64,000 nt of DNA, taken from an uncultured Bacilli bacterium. GTDB lineage: Bacteria; Bacillota_I; Bacilli_A; RF39; UBA660. Below are positions 1,125 to 34,770 of the stretch, piece after piece. A program made the position numbers and the translations under genes. The first letter of the stretch is position 1; every line of letters starts with the position of its first letter. The DNA lies in assembly GCA_934148845.1 (NCBI GenBank), contig CAKPDH010000001.1:251963-315962 (forward strand). The letters are read 5' to 3'. The notes beneath the pieces were generated by a model. The model was not told the DNA's origin and searched no databases. It saw only the letters and a program-made list of their open reading frames with translations.

Positions 1125-2868
1125 GTATAGCTTTTATTCTTCTAACTCCAGAACTACTAGCCTCTTCTTTAATTATTTTAAAATGTCCAAGTTCGCTTGT
1201 ATTTTTAACATGTGGTCCACCACATATTTCTTTTGATACTGAACCTATGCTATAAACTGTTACTATATCAGGATATTTTTCTATAAACATACACTCAGCA
1301 CCACTTTTAATAGCGTCACTTTTAGACATTTCAGTAAAAGTAACATCATATTTATTGGAAATCCAAGTGTTTACTAAATCTTCTACTTTTTTTATTTCTT
1401 CACTATCTAATTTATGATCACAAGAAAAGTCAAATCTCATTCTCTCACTTGTAATATTTGAACCTTTTTGATGACAATCAGGACTTACAATTATTTTTAA
1501 AGCTGCGTTGAGTAAGTGAGTTGCAGTGTGATACTTAGTTTCAACCAAACCATTACCTCCAAGGCCACCTTTAAATTGTCCACTTGAAGCAGTTCTAGAA
1601 AGTTCTTGATGAGATTTAAATTTTTCTTTAAATCCTATTATATCTACAGTTATATTTTTTTCTTTGCATAACTCTTCTGTAAGTTCAATAGGAAAACCAT
1701 ATGTATCATACAATTTAAATGCTAAATCTTTATTTAAAATACCATCTTTAATATTTGCAATGATCCTATCAAATTCCTTTAATCCCTTTTCAAGAGATCT
1801 ATTAAATTTAATTTTTTCTTGTCTTAATACTTCAAAAACTATTTCTTTATTTTCTTCTAACTCACTATAATACTTTTTATATTTATTAATTATTAAATTA
1901 GCAAGTTCTATATCAAAATCACTATTTGTATCAATTCCAATCTTTTTAGCATGTCTTATCATTCTTCTAATTAATCTTCTAAGTATGTAACCTTGTCCTA
2001 CATTACTTGGTTTAATCATAGCGTTATCAGCGCTTATAAAAACACTAGTTCTTATATGGTCAGCAATTATTCTAATACTTTCTAAATTAGAATTATATTC
2101 TTTATTAGACATTTTACATATTAAATCTATTACATCCTTCCATATACTTGACATATAATTATCATTGACACCCTCAAGTATTGCGGTAACACGTTCAACT
2201 CCCATACCTGTATCTACGTTTTTATTTAAAAGCGGAGTAATTTTACCATCCATCTCATGGTTATATTGCATAAATACATTATTCCATATCTCAACCCATC
2301 TACTATCTTCTGGGTCAAACTTTTCAGGAACCTCATCTTCACTTCTAAAATAAAATATTTCAGTATCTGGACCACATAAACCAGGCATTTCTAAATTAGG
2401 CCACCAATTATCTTCTATTGTTTTATATATTCTATCACTTTTTATACCCAAGCTTTTCCAAATATTTGTAGCTTCATCATCAGGAAGAGCTATATCATTA
2501 CCTGCAAATACAGTTACAGCTAGTTTTTCTTTTTTTAATTTTAATACTTCAGTTAAAAATTCAAAACTCCAAGTAATTGCTTCTTTTTTAAAATAATCTC
2601 CAAGTGACCAATTACCTAACATCTCAAAAAAAGTATGGTGATATGAATCCCCTACACTATCTAAATCATTTGTTCTAATACATTTTTGATAATCACACAA
2701 TCTAGTACCATAAGGATGCTTTTTTCCCTTTAAATAAGGAATAATTGGCTGCATACCAGCAGTATTAAATAATACTGTATTATCATTTTCTGGTACAACA
2801 GGTGCACTTTTTATTTGCTTATGGCCTTTACTCACAAAAAAATCTATATACAAATCTTTTAAATTCAT
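1117..2868 (-). CDS. alaS: Alanyl-tRNA synthetase-like protein, short form (catalytic plus editing domains, no C-Ala domain)
   Basis: N-terminus FVSKGHKQIKSAPVVPENDNTVLFNTAGMQP is the class II AlaRS signature. Editing-domain motifs HTATH and CGGPH are present. Only 583 aa compared with about 870 for canonical AlaRS. Confidence 0.75.
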   Translation of the reverse strand: MNLKDLYIDFFVSKGHKQIKSAPVVPENDNTVLFNTAGMQPIIPYLKGKKHPYGTRLCDYQKCIRTNDLDSVGDSYHHTFFEMLGNWSLGDYFKKEAITWSFEFLTEVLKLKKEKLAVTVFAGNDIALPDDEATNIWKSLGIKSDRIYKTIEDNWWPNLEMPGLCGPDTEIFYFRSEDEVPEKFDPEDSRWVEIWNNVFMQYNHEMDGKITPLLNKNVDTGMGVERVTAILEGVNDNYMSSIWKDVIDLICKMSNKEYNSNLESIRIIADHIRTSVFISADNAMIKPSNVGQGYILRRLIRRMIRHAKKIGIDTNSDFDIELANLIINKYKKYYSELEENKEIVFEVLRQEKIKFNRSLEKGLKEFDRIIANIKDGILNKDLAFKLYDTYGFPIELTEELCKEKNITVDIIGFKEKFKSHQELSRTASSGQFKGGLGGNGLVETKYHTATHLLNAALKIIVSPDCHQKGSNITSERMRFDFSCDHKLDSEEIKKVEDLVNTWISNKYDVTFTEMSKSDAIKSGAECMFIEKYPDIVTVYSIGSVSKEICGGPHVKNTSELGHFKIIKEEASSSGVRRIKAILE

Positions 2869-3512
2869 AAACTCACCTCTATTATACTTTTTATTTTATC
2901 TACAACTTCTGATACTGTAAGATTAGAAGAATCTATATAAATAGAATCCGGAGTTCTAGTAAGTGATCCTACTTCTTTATGAGTATCATTATAGTCTCTT
3001 TTTCTTATATTATCTTCTATTTCTTCTAGTGAAACATTCATACCGGAAGCAACATTTTCTTTATATCTTCTTAAAGCTCTAACACTTAAATCTGCATCTA
3101 AATAAAACTTATAATCTGCATTTGGGAAAACCACAGTAGTAATATCTCTACCTTCCATTATAACATTTTTACCATACGCAATTTCTCTTTGCATAGATAC
3201 AAGTATTTCCCTTAATTTCACTATGCTTGATACTGGAGAAACTATACGTGTTACTTCCATAGTTCTAATTTCTTTACTAACATCTTCACCATTTAAATAT
3301 ACTTTATCATCCTTAAATTCTATTTTAGAATTTAAAGCAATATCAACTATTCTTGCACTATCATTAATATCAACATTATTTTTTAATACACTATACGCTA
3401 TAGCTCTATACATCGCTCCAGTATCTATATATACTAAATTACACTTATGAGCTAATATTTTAGCTACAGTACCTTTACCACTCCCAGCAGGACCATCTAT
3501 TGCTACTACCAT
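2865..3512 (-). CDS. cmk: Cytidylate kinase
   Basis: MVVAIDGPAGSGKGTVAKILA...IDTGAMYRA is the canonical Cmk P-loop and N-terminus. 4-nt overlap with the downstream gene. Confidence 0.9.
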   Translation of the reverse strand: MVVAIDGPAGSGKGTVAKILAHKCNLVYIDTGAMYRAIAYSVLKNNVDINDSARIVDIALNSKIEFKDDKVYLNGEDVSKEIRTMEVTRIVSPVSSIVKLREILVSMQREIAYGKNVIMEGRDITTVVFPNADYKFYLDADLSVRALRRYKENVASGMNVSLEEIEDNIRKRDYNDTHKEVGSLTRTPDSIYIDSSNLTVSEVVDKIKSIIEVSL

Positions 3513-9455: not shown

Positions 9456-10310
9456 TTAGTTTTCGTTATTCTTTCTTACTTTACATACTAAATAGATACT
9501 TTCGCCTACTAAGCATACTAGTAATACTAAACTTAAAATCATCCAAGCATTAGAATTATTTTCTTTTACAATTTCTTTAGGTTGATCTTCAGTTTTACAT
9601 TCTTTTTTTACAGCTATCTTAAATTTAACATCTTCAAGTCTTTTTTTAAAATCTGTCTTTTCATCACAACTTGGAAGACTTTCTACTGCTTTAAGTGCTG
9701 CTTCATAATCATCATCTTGTAATGATTTTTCACTAGCTTCTACTAAAATTCTAGCTTTCTTTATTGCTTCTTGCTTTGCAGCTTCTGCTTCTGCCTCTTT
9801 TTTAGCTTTTTCCTCTGCCTCTTTTTTAGCTTTTTCTTCTGCTGCTTTTTTTGCCTCTTCTTGAGCTTTCTTTTCTGCTTCAGTCATAGCTGGGTTAACT
9901 TTAATATCAATTGCTGCTGCAAGACCTGCATATGTATTATCGCCATCACTTGCTTCTACATTAACATTAATTCTACCAGTACCTACACTAGTACCTTTTA
10001 CTGTTATTGCAAATACACTAGTACCACTACTTACACCGCTTTGTGAATATAGAGCATATCTATTTCCACTTTGGCTCATTTTAACAAAACCGCTTTGTTC
10101 TTTAGCACTTACTAAAGCTATAGAACCTGATGTACTAAAAGTTATATCAGCACCTCTAACTTTACTTATACCATTAACTTTTACGTAAATAGTTGTTTGC
10201 TTATTTATCTTAATTGTATTTGTACCTGCTAAACTTACTGATGCTGCTTTAACACTTGGTACAACTATTAAACATAATAATAAAGCAACTAAATATTTTA
10301 ACTTCTTCAT
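9456..10310 (-). CDS. Secreted, membrane-anchored surface protein: N-terminal cohesin-like beta domain, KE-rich coiled linker, C-terminal TM anchor
   Basis: Signal peptide MKKLKYLVALLLCLIVVPSVKA. A roughly 120-aa beta-rich domain resembles cohesin (ISKVRGADITFSTSGSIALVSAKE...). An (EEKAKKEA)n repeat follows. C-terminal hydrophobic anchor WMILSLVLLVCLVGESIYLVC-KVRK. Confidence 0.45.
   Translation of the reverse strand: MKKLKYLVALLLCLIVVPSVKAASVSLAGTNTIKINKQTTIYVKVNGISKVRGADITFSTSGSIALVSAKEQSGFVKMSQSGNRYALYSQSGVSSGTSVFAITVKGTSVGTGRINVNVEASDGDNTYAGLAAAIDIKVNPAMTEAEKKAQEEAKKAAEEKAKKEAEEKAKKEAEAEAAKQEAIKKARILVEASEKSLQDDDYEAALKAVESLPSCDEKTDFKKRLEDVKFKIAVKKECKTEDQPKEIVKENNSNAWMILSLVLLVCLVGESIYLVCKVRKNNEN
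9791..9838 (-). repeat. 24-bp tandem repeat (two or more copies) encoding the (EEKAKKEA)n linker
   Basis: ctgcctcttttttagctttttcct occurs twice in a row, with degenerate copies after it. Confidence 0.6.
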
Positions 10311-10318
10311 AATTCCTC

Positions 10319-11761
10319 CTATTTAAATATTTTATCACATATTTTAACAATATCTGTTATATTAACTTTACCGTCACTATTCATATCGGCAGCCATAAAT
10401 TGCCAATCATCAAGCTGAATCTTTTTAAACATTTGATCACAAGCTTTAACAACGTCTGTTATATCGATAACTCCATTAGAGCTAACATCACCTTTTACAA
10501 TTACTTTATAATGTGCATATTTGCTATTGTTTCTCATAACAAAGATATAAGTACCTGTTGCAAGTCTATTATTGTGTTTATCCTCTGCAACAATAGTTCC
10601 ATAATCAGATCTTAATCTATTAACAAAATTTTTAAGATTTAAGTCTTTACCATCATAATATATAAATTCAAAAAGATGATCAATTTTTATGAAAGAACTA
10701 TCTGATTCATTCTTTAGCTCAATTGGATAACCGCCATATAAATGTGCCTCAGTATATTTATATGCTTCTTCTAATCTATCAATTATTTCTTTTTCATATG
10801 GATAAAAATATTTTGAAATCATTGGAGAATTAATTTTAATTTTTGAATTAATTGTAGCAAATCTTGCATTTACTTTATCTTCAACTTCTTTTATATAATC
10901 CATTATTTCATATAACTTATTATTTGCCTCAATCTTAGTTTCTGGTTCAAAAGGTAAAACCGCGCTGTCAATAATGTCAATACGATTATCAAGCATGCCT
11001 TGTAGTTTTTCCTCTATTTTATTATAAACTTTATAATAATCTTCCTTTATTTTTTTATAATAATCAGAAAAAATTTCTTTAAAATAATCATCATAATCTT
11101 CTAAATGATATAAATTATATAAATTTTGCCATTTATTTATTTTTTCTTCATACTTTGAATATATATCATTTACTCTATCAAATTCATCTAAAGCCAAGTC
11201 AAATAGCCTTCTTGCATCAGCTACACTATTTAATGAATTAACTTTACTCTTAACACTATCATAATACATATCATAATAGATCTTAACTAAATTTTTAACT
11301 GGAGATTTTAATTCTTTTATCTCAGATCTTAATTCAATAAATAAATCAAGACTTCCAGTAACCCCGCCTGATACATGACTATTTAAATAGTCCTCAATTA
11401 TACTTAAGGTTTCTTTTAAATAATCTAAATTAGAAACTAATCTAGGCTTAATACTTAAAAGACTATCACTAGCTTCAGTATAACCATTACGTTTTAACTC
11501 ATCTATTACTAAATCAATAGATTTACTATAGTCTAAACTATCGAACTTGTGAATAAATGCTTTACTGTATATACCCTTAACACTAGAAGCATAACTATTC
11601 GACCAATCAGTTAAATCGCTTACTATAGTTTGTGCAACAGCACCAGCACTATTTACTCTACTAATTACTTCTAATTGCGTATAACTTCTAGCACTTGTTT
11701 TACTTATAAAACATACAAACAAAAAAGCAGTAACTAGGAGTAAATTTTTAAACTTCTTCAT
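10319..11761 (-). CDS. Secreted dockerin-domain protein with a non-catalytic helical N-terminal region
   Basis: Signal peptide. C-terminus has two 22-residue dockerin segments, GDVSSNGVIDITDVVKACDQMF and ADMNSDGKVNITDIVKICDKIF. The second matches the canonical Ca-binding DxNxDGxVNxxD exactly. Confidence 0.65.
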   Translation of the reverse strand: MKKFKNLLLVTAFLFVCFISKTSARSYTQLEVISRVNSAGAVAQTIVSDLTDWSNSYASSVKGIYSKAFIHKFDSLDYSKSIDLVIDELKRNGYTEASDSLLSIKPRLVSNLDYLKETLSIIEDYLNSHVSGGVTGSLDLFIELRSEIKELKSPVKNLVKIYYDMYYDSVKSKVNSLNSVADARRLFDLALDEFDRVNDIYSKYEEKINKWQNLYNLYHLEDYDDYFKEIFSDYYKKIKEDYYKVYNKIEEKLQGMLDNRIDIIDSAVLPFEPETKIEANNKLYEIMDYIKEVEDKVNARFATINSKIKINSPMISKYFYPYEKEIIDRLEEAYKYTEAHLYGGYPIELKNESDSSFIKIDHLFEFIYYDGKDLNLKNFVNRLRSDYGTIVAEDKHNNRLATGTYIFVMRNNSKYAHYKVIVKGDVSSNGVIDITDVVKACDQMFKKIQLDDWQFMAADMNSDGKVNITDIVKICDKIFK

Positions 11762-12029: not shown

Positions 12030-12740
12030 TTATAACTTAATATTTTTATTTTTTTCTATTAAGCCTTCACTTACTAATGCATCTTTTATATTTTTAAGTT
12101 CACTAATTATTATTTTAGACACATATTGCTTTGTAACATTAAAAATACTTGCTATTTCAACTTGAGTATAAATCTTATCATAAAATCCAAAATACATCTT
12201 AACAAACTCACGTCTAGTAGGATTACATATACTATTTACCAAAAGATTAATTTTACTTAATAACTCTTTATTTTCATAATGATTTGTAACATTAAAATCA
12301 GAACTAATATAATCAAGTAATATATTGTTACGACCTTTATCATTTTCATAAATAACATCATCCAAACTTGCAAAATTATTTTTATAAACAGAAAGTGAAT
12401 ATATACGAAGTATATAGTTATCAATGCAAGTAACCGCATAAAATGAAAATACTTTACTTTTACTAAGGTCAAAATGATCAATTGCATATAATAAACCTTG
12501 AATACCTAAAGATATTAATTCATTTTTATCATAGTTTACTTTACTAAATCTTTTATTTACTCTTTGAAACACCAACCTTAAATTATGCATCAAAAGCTTT
12601 TCTCTATTTTCTTTTATACCTCTATTAAGAAGCAAATATACTTCTTCTTCTTTAGATAATGGTTTAGGTAATACAAAGTCTTCTATAAACATATTTTCTT
12701 TTTCCATAACTACTCCTAGATGATGTTTTATATAATACAC
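12030..12740 (-). CDS. RNA polymerase sigma factor, sigma-70 family (alternative sigma)
   Basis: Region-2-like LLMHNLRLVFQRVNKRF and a region-4 HTH ...TQVEIASIFNVTKQYVSKII... Confidence 0.55.
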   Translation of the reverse strand: MYYIKHHLGVVMEKENMFIEDFVLPKPLSKEEEVYLLLNRGIKENREKLLMHNLRLVFQRVNKRFSKVNYDKNELISLGIQGLLYAIDHFDLSKSKVFSFYAVTCIDNYILRIYSLSVYKNNFASLDDVIYENDKGRNNILLDYISSDFNVTNHYENKELLSKINLLVNSICNPTRREFVKMYFGFYDKIYTQVEIASIFNVTKQYVSKIIISELKNIKDALVSEGLIEKNKNIKL

Positions 12741-12767: not shown

Positions 12768-13214
12768 TTAACTTTTTATATATTTATTATAAAATTTACT
12801 ACACAAAAATATACCTATATAAATACCTATAGTATCTATTAATACATCAATAACCATACCACTCCTACCAGGTACAAACAATTGATGTATCTCATCACTT
12901 ATAGAATATAATATACATAAAAGTAACGCTATTAAAAAAGGATCTTTCAAATTAAATACCATAACTAAATTATATACTAAAATGCCAAGTATTAAATATT
13001 CACTTACATGGGCAAGCTTTCTTATAACTAATTCAATTTTGTCCAAAGTATTTTTATCAGTTATCCTTTTATTATTAATACTACCTACAACATTTACAAC
13101 CTGTTTTACAATTCTGCCACTAGTTTTTTTAGATTTATTACTAGGTGCGCTAGAAAAAGTAAATATTACTATCATCCATAATATCACCAGTATTACACTT
13201 ATTAATTTCTTCAT
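12768..13214 (-). CDS. VanZ-family membrane protein
   Basis: VanZ motif RKLAHVSEYLILGILVY within four TM segments. Its start codon overlaps the upstream stop (TAATG). Confidence 0.7.
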   Translation of the reverse strand: MKKLISVILVILWMIVIFTFSSAPSNKSKKTSGRIVKQVVNVVGSINNKRITDKNTLDKIELVIRKLAHVSEYLILGILVYNLVMVFNLKDPFLIALLLCILYSISDEIHQLFVPGRSGMVIDVLIDTIGIYIGIFLCSKFYNKYIKS

Positions 13215-14893
13215 TAATATCTAAACCCTCTTTTATTACTATTTATAAAATCATTAATACCAAAATAACTATTTTTAATAGTGGTAATAAAATCATCTAA
13301 TTTAACATTACAATGAAATGTAAGCTCATTATCATATATATCATAAAATTCAAGCGTTGAAATCTTATTTATATAATCATAATTTAATTTATAATTACCA
13401 TGAGCTATACAATTACGCAAATGCTCAATAATAGATTTATTTTTTATACTAAGTTCATTTAACTTATTATTATTACATATATCTACTCTTTTATTTAATA
13501 ACTCTAAGATTTCATTTTCCTTTTCTTGCTTTCTTTCATTTACATTATTAATGTTATTTAAAACTATATTATAAGCATCCTTATTACCTTTTTCTTTTAA
13601 GATTGATGCTGATTTTTCTAACTTTTTTAATTTTTCACACAGTTCTTCTTTTTCTTTCAATGAAGATTTAATTCTAATACTTATATCACTAATAACGCCA
13701 TCACCCATCTTAATCTTCTTAATATCAAATAAATCAAAATTAAAGATAGAATAATCAAGATTCAAACTATTATAAACGTTTTCAAGGCCATAAGAAAATA
13801 AAGCATTAAAAAGAGAAATAGCTGAACCTGCAATATTATTATAATCTACTACTATACCATTTTGATTAAATTTCTCTAACAATTTATTTTTATCAAATGT
13901 ATGAGCTTTTTCTATAGAATCAAGAACTAATAAATTACTTAAATTATTAACCATCATAATATGCTTAAATTTATCATCATTATAGTATTTGTTTAATAAT
14001 TTACAAATATCATAAGCTTGGTCTTTATAATTTTTAGTTTTTAAAGTATTATTATAAATGATACCAGTAATAGAGTCTAACTCTTCACCTTTTTTATGTG
14101 ATAATTTATATTTAAATTCATAGTTACCATAAACCTTAGCTTTATACGTGCTAAGTACATTTTCATCAAAAGTTAATTTATATTTATCAATAGTTTCTGT
14201 AAATTCTTTTAACGTTTTTTTAGATAAAGGTGTTTTATCTAAAGAAACTATACTACATTCAACAAATGATGTTTTACTTATAAAAGCCTTATATTCACCT
14301 TTATATTTCATTGGAACAACTCTATTATAAGGAATTTTAGAATTAATTACAATTCTTTTTTCATACTTACTTGTAAGAGGATTAATTAAAACATTTTTAA
14401 AACTATCAACTACAAAACAAGATAATTTATTAATATCAATTCTAACCTCACTACTATCTATATTAAAAACTATATTATTGTTGTCTAAATCTAAATAAAA
14501 TAAGCCATGAGATAATTTATTTCTTAACGTTGCTACTAAAAAAGTAGCAGAATTAAACGAATACCCATCTATAGTATAATTCTTATTATCACCTAATAAT
14601 TTACATGACGCTTCTAATGATTTTTCAAATACTAAAGGAATATAATAAGTATCATTATCTAAATCTTTATCAACCAAATCTTCCTTTATACCTTGAAATA
14701 AAGCACACATATTAGCAACTAAGCTAGTCTTAACAACACTAGTGTCATATTCAATATTACTACTATAATTACTACCATTTACTATATCTAATAATAAATT
14801 TAAAAAAGTGATATTACCATTAATATAATTTTCTAAAGTTTCTAATTTATTATTTTCCATTATTAATCCCTCACACACGTTATATAATAGCAT
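13214..14893 (-). CDS. Large hypothetical protein with two Rx4HG motifs (LRNKLSHG, LRNCIAHG); putative dual-HEPN RNase-like protein
   Basis: 559 aa with no signal peptide or TM. The two motifs lie near residues 125 and 500 and share the same context (L-R-N-x3-H-G), with a coiled-coil between them. The HEPN assignment is inference. Confidence 0.4.
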   Translation of the reverse strand: MLLYNVCEGLIMENNKLETLENYINGNITFLNLLLDIVNGSNYSSNIEYDTSVVKTSLVANMCALFQGIKEDLVDKDLDNDTYYIPLVFEKSLEASCKLLGDNKNYTIDGYSFNSATFLVATLRNKLSHGLFYLDLDNNNIVFNIDSSEVRIDINKLSCFVVDSFKNVLINPLTSKYEKRIVINSKIPYNRVVPMKYKGEYKAFISKTSFVECSIVSLDKTPLSKKTLKEFTETIDKYKLTFDENVLSTYKAKVYGNYEFKYKLSHKKGEELDSITGIIYNNTLKTKNYKDQAYDICKLLNKYYNDDKFKHIMMVNNLSNLLVLDSIEKAHTFDKNKLLEKFNQNGIVVDYNNIAGSAISLFNALFSYGLENVYNSLNLDYSIFNFDLFDIKKIKMGDGVISDISIRIKSSLKEKEELCEKLKKLEKSASILKEKGNKDAYNIVLNNINNVNERKQEKENEILELLNKRVDICNNNKLNELSIKNKSIIEHLRNCIAHGNYKLNYDYINKISTLEFYDIYDNELTFHCNVKLDDFITTIKNSYFGINDFINSNKRGFRY

Positions 14894-15035
14894 AAAAGGA
14901 AATAAAATACAAATGGTAACCTTATTTGTTTAAAATTATAACTCCACATAAATAATAATACAATTTTATAAAATAAAAGGCCAATGGCAAGCATACTTTA
15001 CTAATAGCCTAAATTATTAAAAGATATCTAATTTA

Positions 15036-15626
15036 TTATTTTTCCTTTTTAAATATATTGTAAATAATTGGATTATATTTAAAATAATCCTTTGACAAGT
15101 TCATTTTTTTAAATGTTCTTTTAAAGCCTTTCAATAAATAATTATCTTTGTAAATAAAATATTGCTTTTTCTTTTTCATAGGATTGTTTAACTGTTCATT
15201 ATGTAAATAAACCTCTTCATACGTACGTTCTTCATACAAAAATATTGGTAATATCTTGTTAATCAATTGTAATCCTTTTTCAGTTAAAATAATTACCGAA
15301 GATATTCCTGCTTTAATATCATCATTTATTTTGGAATCCTTGCTTAGACCCCAAAAGTCTCCAATCGTAATATCAGAGATTCTTTCTCTTTTTGCATAAT
15401 TACACTCATAACAATTTTCTCTATATATATTTCCTCTTAAAAAAATTTTATAATATTGATCCAAATGCATTTGTGATATATCTTCTAATTCAAATTCATT
15501 AAATAATTCAAACACTTCTTTAGATACTTCTATTTTATTTTTATCAAATACAACTATATATGTATTATTTTCTATAACAAGAGAATAAGGATTATCCTTA
15601 CTTTTTCTTCTCTTTGGTAAATTCAT
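15036..15626 (-). pseudogene. Truncated remnant of an FrhB-like (coenzyme F420 hydrogenase/dehydrogenase beta family) polysaccharide-locus protein
   Basis: NCYECNYAKRERISDITIGDFWGL...AGISSVIILTEKG aligns to the C-terminal half of the full-length paralogs at 20875..22047 and 42016..43164. There is no N-terminal 4Fe-4S domain. Confidence 0.5.
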
Positions 15627-20874: not shown

Positions 20875-22047
20875 CTACCTATGTTTAATTATGTATTTAA
20901 ATTTCTTTAACATTGATAAAAAACCAATTTTAGATAAAATATTTTTAATCAAATGTTTAATTCCTAAAATTTTCGTAATATCATATTTATTATTAAGTAT
21001 ATTATTAATAATTTTATCACGATTATCATTAATACTACACTTTTTAATAAGCGCAGGATTTTCTTTGAAAACTGATTTTAAATCAGTTTCACTAACAACG
21101 AACAATTTTGAAACACTTTCAAACAATTCTAATCCTGACTTTGAATTAATTATAACAGATGATGCACCTTTATTTCTACTTTTGATAAATAAAGATGAAT
21201 CAATCCCCCATGCATCACCTAAAATAATATCAGCTAATTCAAAATTGTTTTTCATTTGACAATTAGAGCATGCATTACGATCAAATAATCCCGCACCAAA
21301 CCCAACATAATAAGGGTCACTTACAACATCTACATGCGTATTATCATCAAAATAATATCTAGTATTTGGAGTTAACCATCCGCCTCTACCTTTATGCCTA
21401 AAATTAATATTAACTAACTTTTTATGATATTTATTTTCAACACTTTCTTTATATTTTTCAAAAATTAAAGGTGAAGGGACAGAGTGACATATAATTTGAA
21501 TGTAATACATATTATCATAGTTTTTTCCTAAATATTTTCTTATACCACTTATTTGACAAGCCATACCAAAAAAAACAACTTTACTACCTTTATTTAAACA
21601 TTCTTTTATACTTCTATAAATATTTTGAATATCAGATTGCACATATTTTGTACCGCTTAACTTATCTAAATCATTAATATCATTGGTTAAAATATGTTTA
21701 GCAACCATATTGTCCCAAACGCAACCACAAACATACCCACCATTTGAAATAATATTTTTTGCTATTTCATAACAAATACCAGAAGAAGTTGTCTTTTTTT
21801 CCAAAGTATTAAGCTCCTTTTTAAATAAGAACATACATTTTATAGGTTTCACATCTTCCGAACTCTCTTCTTGTTTTAATCTGGGACAGACTTTTTCACA
21901 TAATTTACAATCAATACATTTTTCTTTATCTATTTTCGGAATTAAAAAACCATCTTTATCATATTCCATAGTAATAGCATTTTTAGGACAAATATTTTTA
22001 CAAGCAGCGCAACCATAACATTTTTTATTAAATTCAAAATTAATCAT
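20875..22047 (-). CDS. FrhB-like protein (coenzyme F420 hydrogenase/dehydrogenase beta family) with N-terminal 2x[4Fe-4S] ferredoxin
   Basis: CYGCAACKNICP...CIDCKLCEKVCP near the start. C-terminal ...CSNCQ...ADIILGDAWG. Immediately downstream of a pyruvyl transferase. Confidence 0.8.
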   Translation of the reverse strand: MINFEFNKKCYGCAACKNICPKNAITMEYDKDGFLIPKIDKEKCIDCKLCEKVCPRLKQEESSEDVKPIKCMFLFKKELNTLEKKTTSSGICYEIAKNIISNGGYVCGCVWDNMVAKHILTNDINDLDKLSGTKYVQSDIQNIYRSIKECLNKGSKVVFFGMACQISGIRKYLGKNYDNMYYIQIICHSVPSPLIFEKYKESVENKYHKKLVNINFRHKGRGGWLTPNTRYYFDDNTHVDVVSDPYYVGFGAGLFDRNACSNCQMKNNFELADIILGDAWGIDSSLFIKSRNKGASSVIINSKSGLELFESVSKLFVVSETDLKSVFKENPALIKKCSINDNRDKIINNILNNKYDITKILGIKHLIKNILSKIGFLSMLKKFKYIIKHR

Positions 22048-33363: not shown

Positions 33364-34065
33364 TTAGAGTTTAATATAATCTTTAATTTTTGAATAAAGT
33401 TTATCCCCTATACCAGAGACATTTTTAATATCTTCTATATTTTTAAATTCTCCATTCTTTTCTCTATATTCTATAATAGCCTTAGCCTTAGTTTCTCCAA
33501 GATATGGTATATTAATTAAATCTTCTACTGTACAAGTATTAATGGATACTAAAGCACTTTTTACGTCATTATCTAAATTATCACTAGTACCATTTGTATT
33601 AACAGTATCATCTTTATTAATACAAGCATCATTTATATTATCAGGACATACACATTCATATTCAATATATATAATTTCTTTATCTTGCTTTTTATATTTT
33701 TCTACTTCGTCATTAGAATATATTATTATAATCATTTCATCGGTTATTTTTTTGCTTAAATTAATATACTCTGTATTAGCGCCATCTATAAGTCCACCCG
33801 ATAATTTTATTACATCAATTATTCTACTATCTTTTGCAAGCTCATATACTCCAGGCTTTTTTACAAAGCCTTTTATATCTACTTTTAATAATTCTGGTTC
33901 TTTATTTTCTACACTTGTTATATTTTCTATATTAGTATTATCTAATTCTTTAGTATCTTCTACTTTTCCTTGTACATCTATAACTACAAATAATAATATC
34001 ACTAAAATTAATATTATTAATATAAATAATTTATATTTATCTAAATAGTATTTTATTTTATTCAT
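33364..34065 (-). CDS. comEA: ComEA (DNA receptor; SLBB plus tandem HhH)
   Basis: TM anchor, then GFVKKPGVYELAKDSRIIDVIKLSGG (SLBB), then C-terminal EDLINIPYLGETKAKAIIEYREKNGEFKNIEDIKNVSGIGDKLYSKI (HhH). Confidence 0.85.
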   Translation of the reverse strand: MNKIKYYLDKYKLFILIILILVILLFVVIDVQGKVEDTKELDNTNIENITSVENKEPELLKVDIKGFVKKPGVYELAKDSRIIDVIKLSGGLIDGANTEYINLSKKITDEMIIIIYSNDEVEKYKKQDKEIIYIEYECVCPDNINDACINKDDTVNTNGTSDNLDNDVKSALVSINTCTVEDLINIPYLGETKAKAIIEYREKNGEFKNIEDIKNVSGIGDKLYSKIKDYIKL

Positions 34066-34127: not shown

Positions 34128-34160
34128 ATGCAAAAAAAGTGATAAAAATCACTTTTTTAA
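34128..34160 (-). terminator. Intrinsic terminator hairpin (aagtgat-tttt-atcactt) plus a T-tract
   Basis: Minus strand reads aaaaaagtgatttttatcactttttttgc. It lies at the 3' end of the GC-enriched ORF-free region. Confidence 0.5.
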
Positions 34161-34770
34161 TGGCTTTAATACAGTTAATCTTGCGTCATAGGTCAAGTTG
34201 GATTTCCCTAAATCTTACTCATCGTTACCAATAAAGCGGTTCCCCTTTAAAAGATTTAATACAAAGTATTACTTGATTACCACTCAGTACGCACTGCAAT
34301 CCTATACTAATTCACTCTAGGAGATTTCCTCACCAGTTATTTATTATTAATTCTTTTTTGCAAATAACATTTCAAATTGCATTCTTATAGATTCTAGCTA
34401 TAAACTTATAAGAATGTTAATCAATTATCCCTATTACTCACTCAAGACTAGCTACACTACCCATAACTTTCATCACGAGGTAGGTTTAATCCTATTTCGT
34501 ATTAGATCCATCAGTTTGTTCGTATAGGTCTAACACAAGAATAGGTCTCCACGGATGGTGGGTCATTTACATATGCCATTATGGATGCCCAACATCCTCA
34601 TTTCCAGCACTCACCCCAATCTGGGCGAAAGAAGCAAGCACAAGAAGTTTCACAGGTGTGCTATTGAACGGATTTTTAGCCCCGCCTTCATAATAAATAT
34701 TCTGACTAGAATAATGTGCCACCACGACTAAAAGTATATCAAATTTACACATATTTGTCAAATTGAATAC
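34161..34770 (-). ncRNA. Candidate large structured non-coding RNA of about 600 nt; identity unresolved
   Basis: Roughly 38-40% GC against about 24% around it. No ORF of 60 aa or more apart from one spurious listed ORF. Multiple local hairpins (for example ggatgCCCAAcatcc, cagtGCGTactg). Ends at an intrinsic terminator just upstream of comEA. Confidence 0.3.

Follow-up and report, generated by a model that had tools for sequence, protein, structure and literature searches.

A candidate tandem-HEPN ribonuclease encoded on the chromosomes of uncultured gut Bacilli

The stretch of DNA analysed here, called the window throughout, is 64,000 nucleotides (nt) long and comes from an uncultured Bacilli bacterium (GenBank assembly GCA_934148845.1, contig CAKPDH010000001.1). 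On its minus strand lies a gene for a protein with two HEPN-type motifs, the subject of this report, which is followed by genes for a VanZ-family membrane protein and a sigma-70-family factor (Table 1). An earlier note, made from the sequence alone, had placed an open reading frame (ORF) at 13214..14893 on this strand. The frame exists, and its start is most likely the ATG at 14860 rather than the codon 33 nt further upstream, giving a product of 548 and not 559 residues. We draw the coding sequence (CDS) from this ATG because the second in-frame methionine of the longer version (M12) is the start in all homologues, a Shine-Dalgarno-like site stands in front of it, and the exact 548-residue product is recorded in public gene calls. 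Residue numbers below follow the shorter version; in the 559-residue numbering the motifs LRNKLSHG and LRNCIAHG are residues 123-130 and 492-499. A promoter-like site in the upstream intergenic region is weak, since the count of such sites there is not above the shuffled expectation.

Both motifs fit the HEPN Rx4-6H pattern, as the earlier note had recognised. RNKLSH and RNCIAH are each Rx4H with asparagine directly after the arginine, and a polar residue at that position (N, D or H) is typical of the HEPN motif (PMC3710099). The 548-residue protein contains only 10 arginines and 7 histidines. Among 200,000 composition-preserving shuffles, at least two Rx4H motifs were found in 0.6%, a single RNxxxHG in 0.06% and two RNxxxHG in none, and the pair of motifs is therefore not due to chance. 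The presence of two HEPN-type motifs in this protein is confirmed.

A word-indexed homologue search returned eight relatives, one with 93% identity and the others with 25-30%, and a repeat of this search with an alignment returned the same eight proteins. An exhaustive HMMER search with an alignment of the eight relatives recovered 362 cluster representatives at E <= 1e-3, among which 156 were at E <= 1e-30; nearly all full-length matches were 530-600 residues long and aligned end to end. Judged by these matches, the family is well populated and has one fixed architecture, and no name was attached to any member that was looked up. The genomes matched are nearly all from uncultured gut Bacilli, deposited as 'Tenericutes' or CAG-type metagenome-assembled genomes, with samples taken from humans (many of them Hadza), goat, sheep and buffalo; the window protein itself was found on Hadza gut contigs. 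A few loci carry the labels Muribaculaceae, Paludibacteraceae or Clostridia, which are given as deposited and may reflect binning errors. The family is usually present in one copy per genome, across 78 species-level genomes of one broad lineage.

Conservation in this family is concentrated at the two motifs. In an alignment of the query with 132 full-length members, taken without selection, R113, H118 and G119 are conserved at 97%, 98% and 97%, and R482, H487 and G488 at 99%, 98% and 95%, making these six the best conserved columns. The asparagine after the motif arginine is kept at 89-93%, and K59 and E60 at 93% and 91%. The same six columns are the sole invariant ones in an alignment of 95 sequences that left out some motif-variant members. 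Both Rx4H motifs are present in 82 of the 85 full-length proteins from genome loci, and in two family members the histidines of both motifs have been lost together. The earlier note had staked its reading on orthologues keeping the motif residues, and they do so, with arginine and histidine at 97-99% in the 133 sequences.

To place the two halves of the protein, we compared them with the pEK499_p136 family (PF18736), a HEPN family defined by Anantharaman et al. 2013 (PMC3710099). Against a profile of 98 sequences of this family, the C-terminal domain aligned by hhalign with a probability of 94% and an E value of 1.5e-7, spanning the motif helix, the beta insert and the last helix. The N-terminal domain aligned with the C-terminal domain over the same elements (probability 94%, E 1.3e-7) and is therefore taken to be its internal duplicate. 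Compared directly with the family profile, the N-terminal domain gave E 0.004 over 72 columns, with both the KE pair and the RN..H motif superposed and with K59-E60 aligned to the conserved PKE of the family. Six control comparisons gave no E value below 0.048, and a middle-domain control run with the family profile gave 0.36; over all reversed-sequence and middle-domain controls the range was 0.048-0.56. The single-sequence comparison with pEK499_p136 was weak (E 0.003, probability 11%) and became convincing only once the family profile was used. A precomputed annotation lists PF18736.8 as 'weak' (best E <= 0.001) on the exact protein and unmarked (E <= 1e-5) on a relative (P0004), while a Pfam scan of eight homologues with PF18736.6 gave no meaningful match; this discrepancy is probably a difference between model versions. 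The middle domain matched nothing in Pfam, NCBIfam, PADLOC or PHROG and is a putative sensor or regulatory module. The protein thus appears to consist of two pEK499_p136-type HEPN domains that arose by internal duplication and that flank a highly variable middle domain.

The predicted structure is consistent with this assignment. AlphaFold2 (AF2) models were built from a shallow alignment and have predicted local distance difference test (pLDDT) values of 78-82; the full model has a pLDDT of 81.6 and a predicted template modelling score (pTM) of 0.69, and a model of the N-terminal domain only has a pLDDT of 77.9. In the N-terminal domain the elements are helix 1 (2-28), helix 2 (40-61), an insert helix (73-84), helix 3 (105-117), a three-strand beta insert (122-142) and helix 4 (143-158). 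The C-terminal domain has a long helical hairpin (388-467) that forms helices 1 and 2, followed by helix 3 (469-486), a beta insert (490-520) and helix 4 (521-541). Two long helices are modelled before each motif, each Rx4H lies at the C-terminal end of the third core helix and runs into the loop, and a three-strand beta insert and a final helix follow. E60 is placed within or at the end of helix 2, and the 133-member alignment has no equally conserved acidic residue in helix 2 of the C-terminal domain. The layout described for HEPN domains is a four-helix core in which helix 3 ends at the motif, helix 2 carries an acidic residue and an insert separates these two helices (PMC3710099), and the predicted topology fits it because the positions of the motif, E60 and the insert match. 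Foldseek found no match at E < 0.001, either with the full AF2 model in PDB and BFVD or with the N-terminal model in PDB. Searches of PDB by sequence, with a single-sequence query, a full-family profile and a C-core profile, gave coiled-coil or chance matches only. The dual-HEPN assignment is well supported by sequence and predicted topology, and fold comparison did not independently confirm it. Overall, the earlier proposal of two HEPN domains in one polypeptide is borne out by the conserved motif columns, the two hhalign alignments (C-terminal domain with pEK499_p136, N-terminal with C-terminal domain) and the PF18736 match.

Table 1. Features of the tandem-HEPN gene and its two downstream neighbours, in window coordinates
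Feature	Position	Strand	Basis or remark
Tandem-HEPN CDS, 548 residues plus stop	13214..14860	-	ORF list, homologue starts, public gene calls
N-terminal HEPN-like domain, residues 1-160	14381..14860	-	AF2 secondary structure and hhalign
K59-E60, end of helix 2	14681..14686	-	Candidate HEPN auxiliary acidic residue; translation
HEPN motif 1, R113-N-K-L-S-H118-G119	14504..14524	-	Translation
Middle alpha/beta-then-helical domain, residues 161-385	13706..14380	-	Most variable region
C-terminal HEPN domain, residues 386-548	13217..13705	-	AF2, hhalign, precomputed PF18736 match
HEPN motif 2, R482-N-C-I-A-H487-G488	13397..13417	-	Translation
Shine-Dalgarno-like GAGGGA	14867..14872	-	6 nt upstream of the ATG at 14860; read from sequence
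Promoter-like TTGCCA, 16-nt spacer, TAAAAT	14963..14990	-	In the 175-nt upstream intergenic region; consensus match, weak
VanZ-family membrane protein	12768..13214	-	Pfam VanZ E 3e-25, NCBIfam vanZ_1 E 3e-31
Sigma-70-family factor, 225 residues from the ATG at 12707	12030..12707	-	SigK/SigE-like, well below equivalog cut-offs

The gene evolves quickly, at roughly double the rate of its housekeeping neighbours. In syntenic genome pairs, UvrC is 86-88% identical versus 51-57% for the HEPN protein, FtsW 83% versus 44%, and a P-type ATPase 78% versus 41%. When the window is compared with a strain contig (L087), the HEPN gene has a nonsynonymous rate (dN) of 0.031, a synonymous rate (dS) of 0.059 and a dN/dS of 0.53. 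The three longer downstream genes (sigma factor, dockerin protein and a 284-residue protein) have a dN/dS of about 0.2, and the short VanZ gene has 1.0 on few sites. In the same comparison the upstream polysaccharide genes are nearly identical (dS <= 0.005), and from the HEPN gene onward dS is 0.02-0.10; this sharp change in divergence at about 14860..15000 suggests a recombination breakpoint at the HEPN gene. Against the 93%-identical strain there are 37 amino-acid differences, 25 of which fall in the middle domain and 22 of these in residues 192-266; overall, changes are densest in residues 155-290. The synonymous changes cluster as well, with 11 of 16 between residues 168 and 290. Synonymous and replacement changes thus crowd into the same segment, which fits a recombined divergent tract together with relaxed or diversifying selection. 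Positive selection is not proven, as the dN/dS of 0.53 is elevated but below 1 and the synonymous changes lie in the same segment. The gene has also changed in number and integrity. Tandem duplicates are present in four genomes (L011, L033, L042 and L046), copies truncated to 288-465 residues were found at two further loci (L059, L060) and as the second copy of L033, and the 90% cluster of the window species includes a version split into 365 and 183 residues (P0283, P0282).

The genes downstream of the HEPN gene were compared across loci. The ATG of the VanZ gene overlaps the HEPN stop codon by 1 nt (TAATG), and the sigma-70 gene, called at the same 225 residues in strain contigs, starts 60 nt after VanZ and 474 nt downstream of the HEPN gene on the same strand; the earlier note had read both the overlap and the sigma gene correctly. 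No terminator-like site lies between the three genes in the window, and the layout is common to strains of the same species. The window as a whole is a strongly co-oriented, very AT-rich chromosomal segment, in which 52 of the 54 ORFs of at least 150 residues are on the minus strand, the GC skew is uniformly negative and the GC content is 18-28%. We surveyed the context of 86 loci, 78 of them from species-representative genomes and the rest from metagenome contigs, by calling ORFs, clustering the products and tabulating gene order. No neighbour cluster was directly upstream or downstream in more than 7 of the 86. By jackhmmer, VanZ occurred within 6 kb in 3 contexts only and was adjacent only in the window species; in the other two it lies 2.3-2.5 kb off, behind a SpoU methylase gene, rimM and trmD. 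A sigma factor was less than 500 nt away in two contexts, the window species and one three-locus group, where it is directly adjacent but convergent. In relatives with about 30% identity uvrC is directly downstream of the gene, and in the window VanZ, the sigma gene and two genes for secreted proteins come first, with uvrC 3.8 kb further on. The functional operon with VanZ and a sigma factor that the earlier note had proposed does not hold up, the adjacency not being conserved across the 86 loci. We rejected this partnership, as VanZ is adjacent only in the window species and the sigma factor is not a conserved partner. The VanZ coupling is probably a local accident of gene packing in a genome whose genes run so largely in one direction, and is not evidence of a system.

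What the protein does can be approached from HEPN biochemistry. Catalytic HEPN proteins are metal-independent ribonucleases (RNases) whose site is formed by the arginine and histidine of two HEPN domains and whose products carry 2',3'-cyclic phosphate ends (PMC3710099; bioRxiv 10.64898/2026.02.22.705581). Across the family both Rx4H motifs are strongly constrained and the remainder of the protein diverges fast, and there is no conserved partner gene. The window protein is probably a catalytically competent dual-HEPN RNase. The fuller reading that we favour is held tentatively, at a little under an even chance. It sees a stand-alone RNase with duplicated HEPN domains that is triggered by stress or phage and serves as a single-protein conflict or abortive-infection toxin, with the VanZ and sigma-factor genes as incidental neighbours in the window genome. 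The two HEPN domains would pair within a single chain, as in Cas13, or across chains, and the arginine and histidine of each partner would make up a metal-independent RNase site. The enzyme would be silent until the middle domain or the coiled-coil/helical hairpin senses a trigger such as phage infection or stress, and would then cleave cellular RNA (tRNA, rRNA or mRNA) and arrest growth. Frozen catalytic residues, a fast-changing remainder, copy-number change and decay fit a conflict gene better than a core RNA-processing enzyme, although this evidence is circumstantial. Precedent for HEPN defence by a single protein is provided by DARNA/PD-T7-3, and by ApeA as cited in the DARNA work (bioRxiv 10.64898/2026.02.22.705581).

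Several observations weigh against this reading. RNase activity is predicted from sequence, and the putative toxin or anti-phage role from circumstantial evolutionary signals. The direct link of the N-terminal domain to pEK499_p136 has an E value of only 0.004 and is otherwise transitive through the C-terminal domain. Searches with the PF18736.6 Pfam model, NCBIfam and PHROGs gave no HEPN-related match to the protein. PADLOC (PADLOC-DB v2) gave no match to it either, and two relatives had sub-threshold, motif-level RTasHEPN matches (E 0.025-0.036). The N-terminal motif alone is altered in five members (four R to K, one H to Y), and the two sites may therefore not be strictly co-dependent. The flanking genes are mostly housekeeping (recG, hrcA-grpE-dnaK, uvrC-relA-dtd, ftsW, rimM-trmD, corA, hsp20) and not defence islands, and the family was not found in IMG/VR contigs, GenBank phages or PLSDB plasmids, leaving a phage or plasmid origin of the gene without support in these searches. 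This housekeeping setting and the absence from mobile elements, also circumstantial, pull the other way from the signs of a conflict gene, and the fast evolution and pseudogenes could equally reflect weak constraint.

The same observations bear on what else the protein might be. A lineage-specific housekeeping RNase for RNA processing or decay in gut Bacilli with reduced genomes would account for the usual single copy in 78 species-level genomes, for the chromosomal position co-oriented with rimM-trmD and the SpoU methylase gene, recG, the dnaK operon or uvrC, for the absence from the phages, plasmids and viral contigs searched, and for the lack of an antitoxin-like partner, no directly adjacent neighbour cluster being shared by more than 7 of the 86 loci. 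Housekeeping HEPN enzymes have a precedent in eukaryotic Las1, a HEPN nuclease that reportedly acts constitutively in rRNA processing. We nevertheless consider such a role unlikely, as the gene evolves much faster than its housekeeping neighbours, has a raised dN/dS and a hypervariable central segment within one species, and changes genomic position between sub-lineages; tandem paralogues, truncated or split copies and members that have lost both catalytic histidines point to a dispensable gene. We regard as very improbable a multi-gene module, much like Cas13b with Csx27/Csx28, in which the dual-HEPN RNase has the coupled VanZ membrane protein as its partner and controls or is controlled by the sigma factor. 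The TAATG overlap, the lack of a terminator-like site and the arrangement kept among strains of one species do suggest it, and Csx28 is reportedly a membrane accessory to the dual-HEPN effector Cas13b. The module is largely refuted by the unconserved linkage: in the 86 loci VanZ is close in three contexts only, sigma factors are near in few and the directly adjacent one elsewhere is convergent, and the approximately 30%-identity relatives have uvrC in the downstream place.

Two further alternatives concern the HEPN domains themselves. They may pair across subunits of a homodimer or higher oligomer, as in DARNA and Csm6, giving two sites or one site and a regulatory pseudo-site. HEPN domains typically dimerise between subunits (bioRxiv 10.64898/2026.02.22.705581), the long helical hairpin (388-467) could mediate oligomerisation, and the five members with only the N-terminal motif changed suggest that the C-terminal site can stand alone. 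We think this arrangement unlikely as well, given that both motifs are kept in about 96% of members, that both histidines were lost together in the two clear cases of inactivation, and that the pTM of 0.69 suggests a defined inter-domain arrangement in the model. That the protein is not a nuclease at all, and that its Rx4H domains serve instead as HEPN-like helical modules that bind a ligand or nucleotide or form a scaffold, appears quite improbable. Some HEPN domains are non-catalytic (PMC3710099), and this possibility would agree with the lack of a Foldseek match to a HEPN nuclease structure and of a significant HEPN-family match in Pfam (PF18736.6), NCBIfam, PADLOC and PHROGs. However, non-catalytic HEPN domains characteristically lose the Rx4-6H motif (PMC3710099), whereas in both domains of this protein conservation is highest at R, the N after it, H and G.

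A stand-alone RNase with duplicated HEPN domains, the reading that we favour, can be set against known HEPN systems. The type member of its nearest family, WP_000528932.1 from the Escherichia coli plasmid pEK499, is annotated 'HEPN family nuclease'. Like the window protein, pEK499_p136 proteins have an RNxxAH motif where the third core helix ends, with a beta insert and one more helix after it, and a conserved K-E in helix 2 that aligns with K59-E60 of the N-terminal domain. They differ in being about 160 residues long with a single HEPN domain and in coming mostly from Proteobacteria and plasmids, whereas the window protein has 548 residues, two domains, a 225-residue variable middle domain and a long helical hairpin, and is chromosomal in gut Bacilli. 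Members of the pEK499_p136 family are sometimes found in restriction-modification or Pgl operons (PMC3710099).

DARNA/PD-T7-3 is, like the window protein, a stand-alone protein with an N-terminal HEPN domain, with Rx4H near residue 117 (residue 113 here); a non-catalytic sensor domain follows the HEPN domain and no partner gene is required (bioRxiv 10.64898/2026.02.22.705581). In contrast to the window protein it has one HEPN domain, and its HEPN dimers form within a dodecamer. No PADLOC model, from a set that should include PD-T7-3 and ApeA, matched the protein or its relatives beyond the sub-threshold, motif-level matches. Abi_2 proteins (AbiD/AbiF-like, PF07751) share with the window protein the RNxxAH HEPN motif and an occurrence as chromosomal genes of Firmicutes, but the window protein has no Pfam Abi_2 match. 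The window gene is also unlike AbiF-type genes in that no upstream tandem repeat array encoding an RNA antitoxin precedes it; no tandem repeats were found in 14861..15035. An Abi_2 gene does occur two genes upstream of distant family members (within L077-L086). In this most distant branch, with proteins of 570-620 residues, the Abi_2 gene (AbiD/F-like HEPN, Pfam E 4.5e-40) and a gene for an HtrA-like protease stand immediately upstream on the same strand in seven loci (L077-L079, L082-L084 and L086, at about 1500..3500 of each), the only recurrent link seen to a recognised Abi family. Conflict-flavoured neighbours in general are sporadic: Amidoligase_2, the Abi_2 protein, a phosphodiesterase that matches PglZ faintly, and an XRE-type helix-turn-helix/DUF2975 membrane protein.

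In Cas13, a single polypeptide contains a pair of HEPN domains with one Rx4H motif apiece, and these form one composite RNase site. The window protein resembles it in having two Rx4H HEPN domains in a single chain, and is far smaller, Cas13 proteins being much larger than 548 residues. The protein has no sequence or fold match to Cas13 and no guide RNA is evident. The 64-kb window contains no CRISPR array, CRISPR-type RNA family or cas genes, and the 86 loci have no array-associated context. We rejected a CRISPR link, as the window has no repeat array or CRISPR-type RNA. A more specific version of our proposal, which we regard as doubtful, is that the protein is a compact (about 550 residues), guide-independent tandem-HEPN effector of a class not described before, with a Cas13-like intramolecular site gated by a hypervariable sensor, serving as a single-gene abortive-infection system in uncultured gut Bacilli. 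If this were true, the protein could illustrate a possible ancestral form of type VI effectors, namely a dual-HEPN protein that stands alone.

The domain belongs by its profile match to a known Pfam HEPN family, and its chemistry is not new. What appears to be undescribed is the architecture, a duplicated pEK499_p136-type HEPN domain around a hypervariable domain in about 550 residues with neither CRISPR nor a partner gene, and the near-restriction to uncultured gut Bacilli. The literature that we found on pEK499_p136 and on tandem or dual HEPN proteins consists of the 2013 survey and the Cas13, Las1 and DARNA work only, and in it we found no well-described bacterial protein with two catalytic HEPN domains in one chain besides Cas13. 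Several important immune and toxin systems use HEPN RNases as effectors, among them Cas13, Csm6, RnlA, ApeA and DARNA. The family would offer a simple system in which to study how an intramolecular HEPN pair is silenced and triggered, a protein of about 550 residues could be a small scaffold for RNA-targeting tools, and a candidate immune or stress gene would be added for the poorly known uncultured Bacilli of the human gut. Should the protein instead be a housekeeping RNase, it would be a lineage-specific RNA-processing enzyme of reduced genomes, worth knowing and less surprising.

Other features of the window were noted in passing. A full-length OLE (Ornate Large Extremophilic) RNA (RF01071) lies at 34144..34738 on the minus strand (367.6 bits, E 2e-104), in a genome that appears to come from the human gut, and the ORF just downstream of it (33364..34065) is ComEA-like (SLBB and HHH_3) and not an obvious OapA. 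Upstream of the HEPN gene, a 196-residue ORF (15036..15626, minus strand) matches the C-terminal FrhB_FdhB_C domain only. A 390-residue gene with ferredoxin and FrhB_FdhB_C domains lies 5 kb further up in the same polysaccharide-synthesis cluster (20875..22047, minus strand), and the 196-residue ORF, which sits at the margin of that cluster, looks to be a truncated duplicate. Directly downstream of the sigma factor, within 9456..11761 on the minus strand, is a gene for a 480-residue secreted protein that carries a type I dockerin at its C terminus (Pfam E 3.8e-5). The next gene encodes a 284-residue protein, also secreted, that has a linker rich in Ala, Glu and Lys and a membrane anchor at the C terminus; this protein could be a cohesin-like partner.

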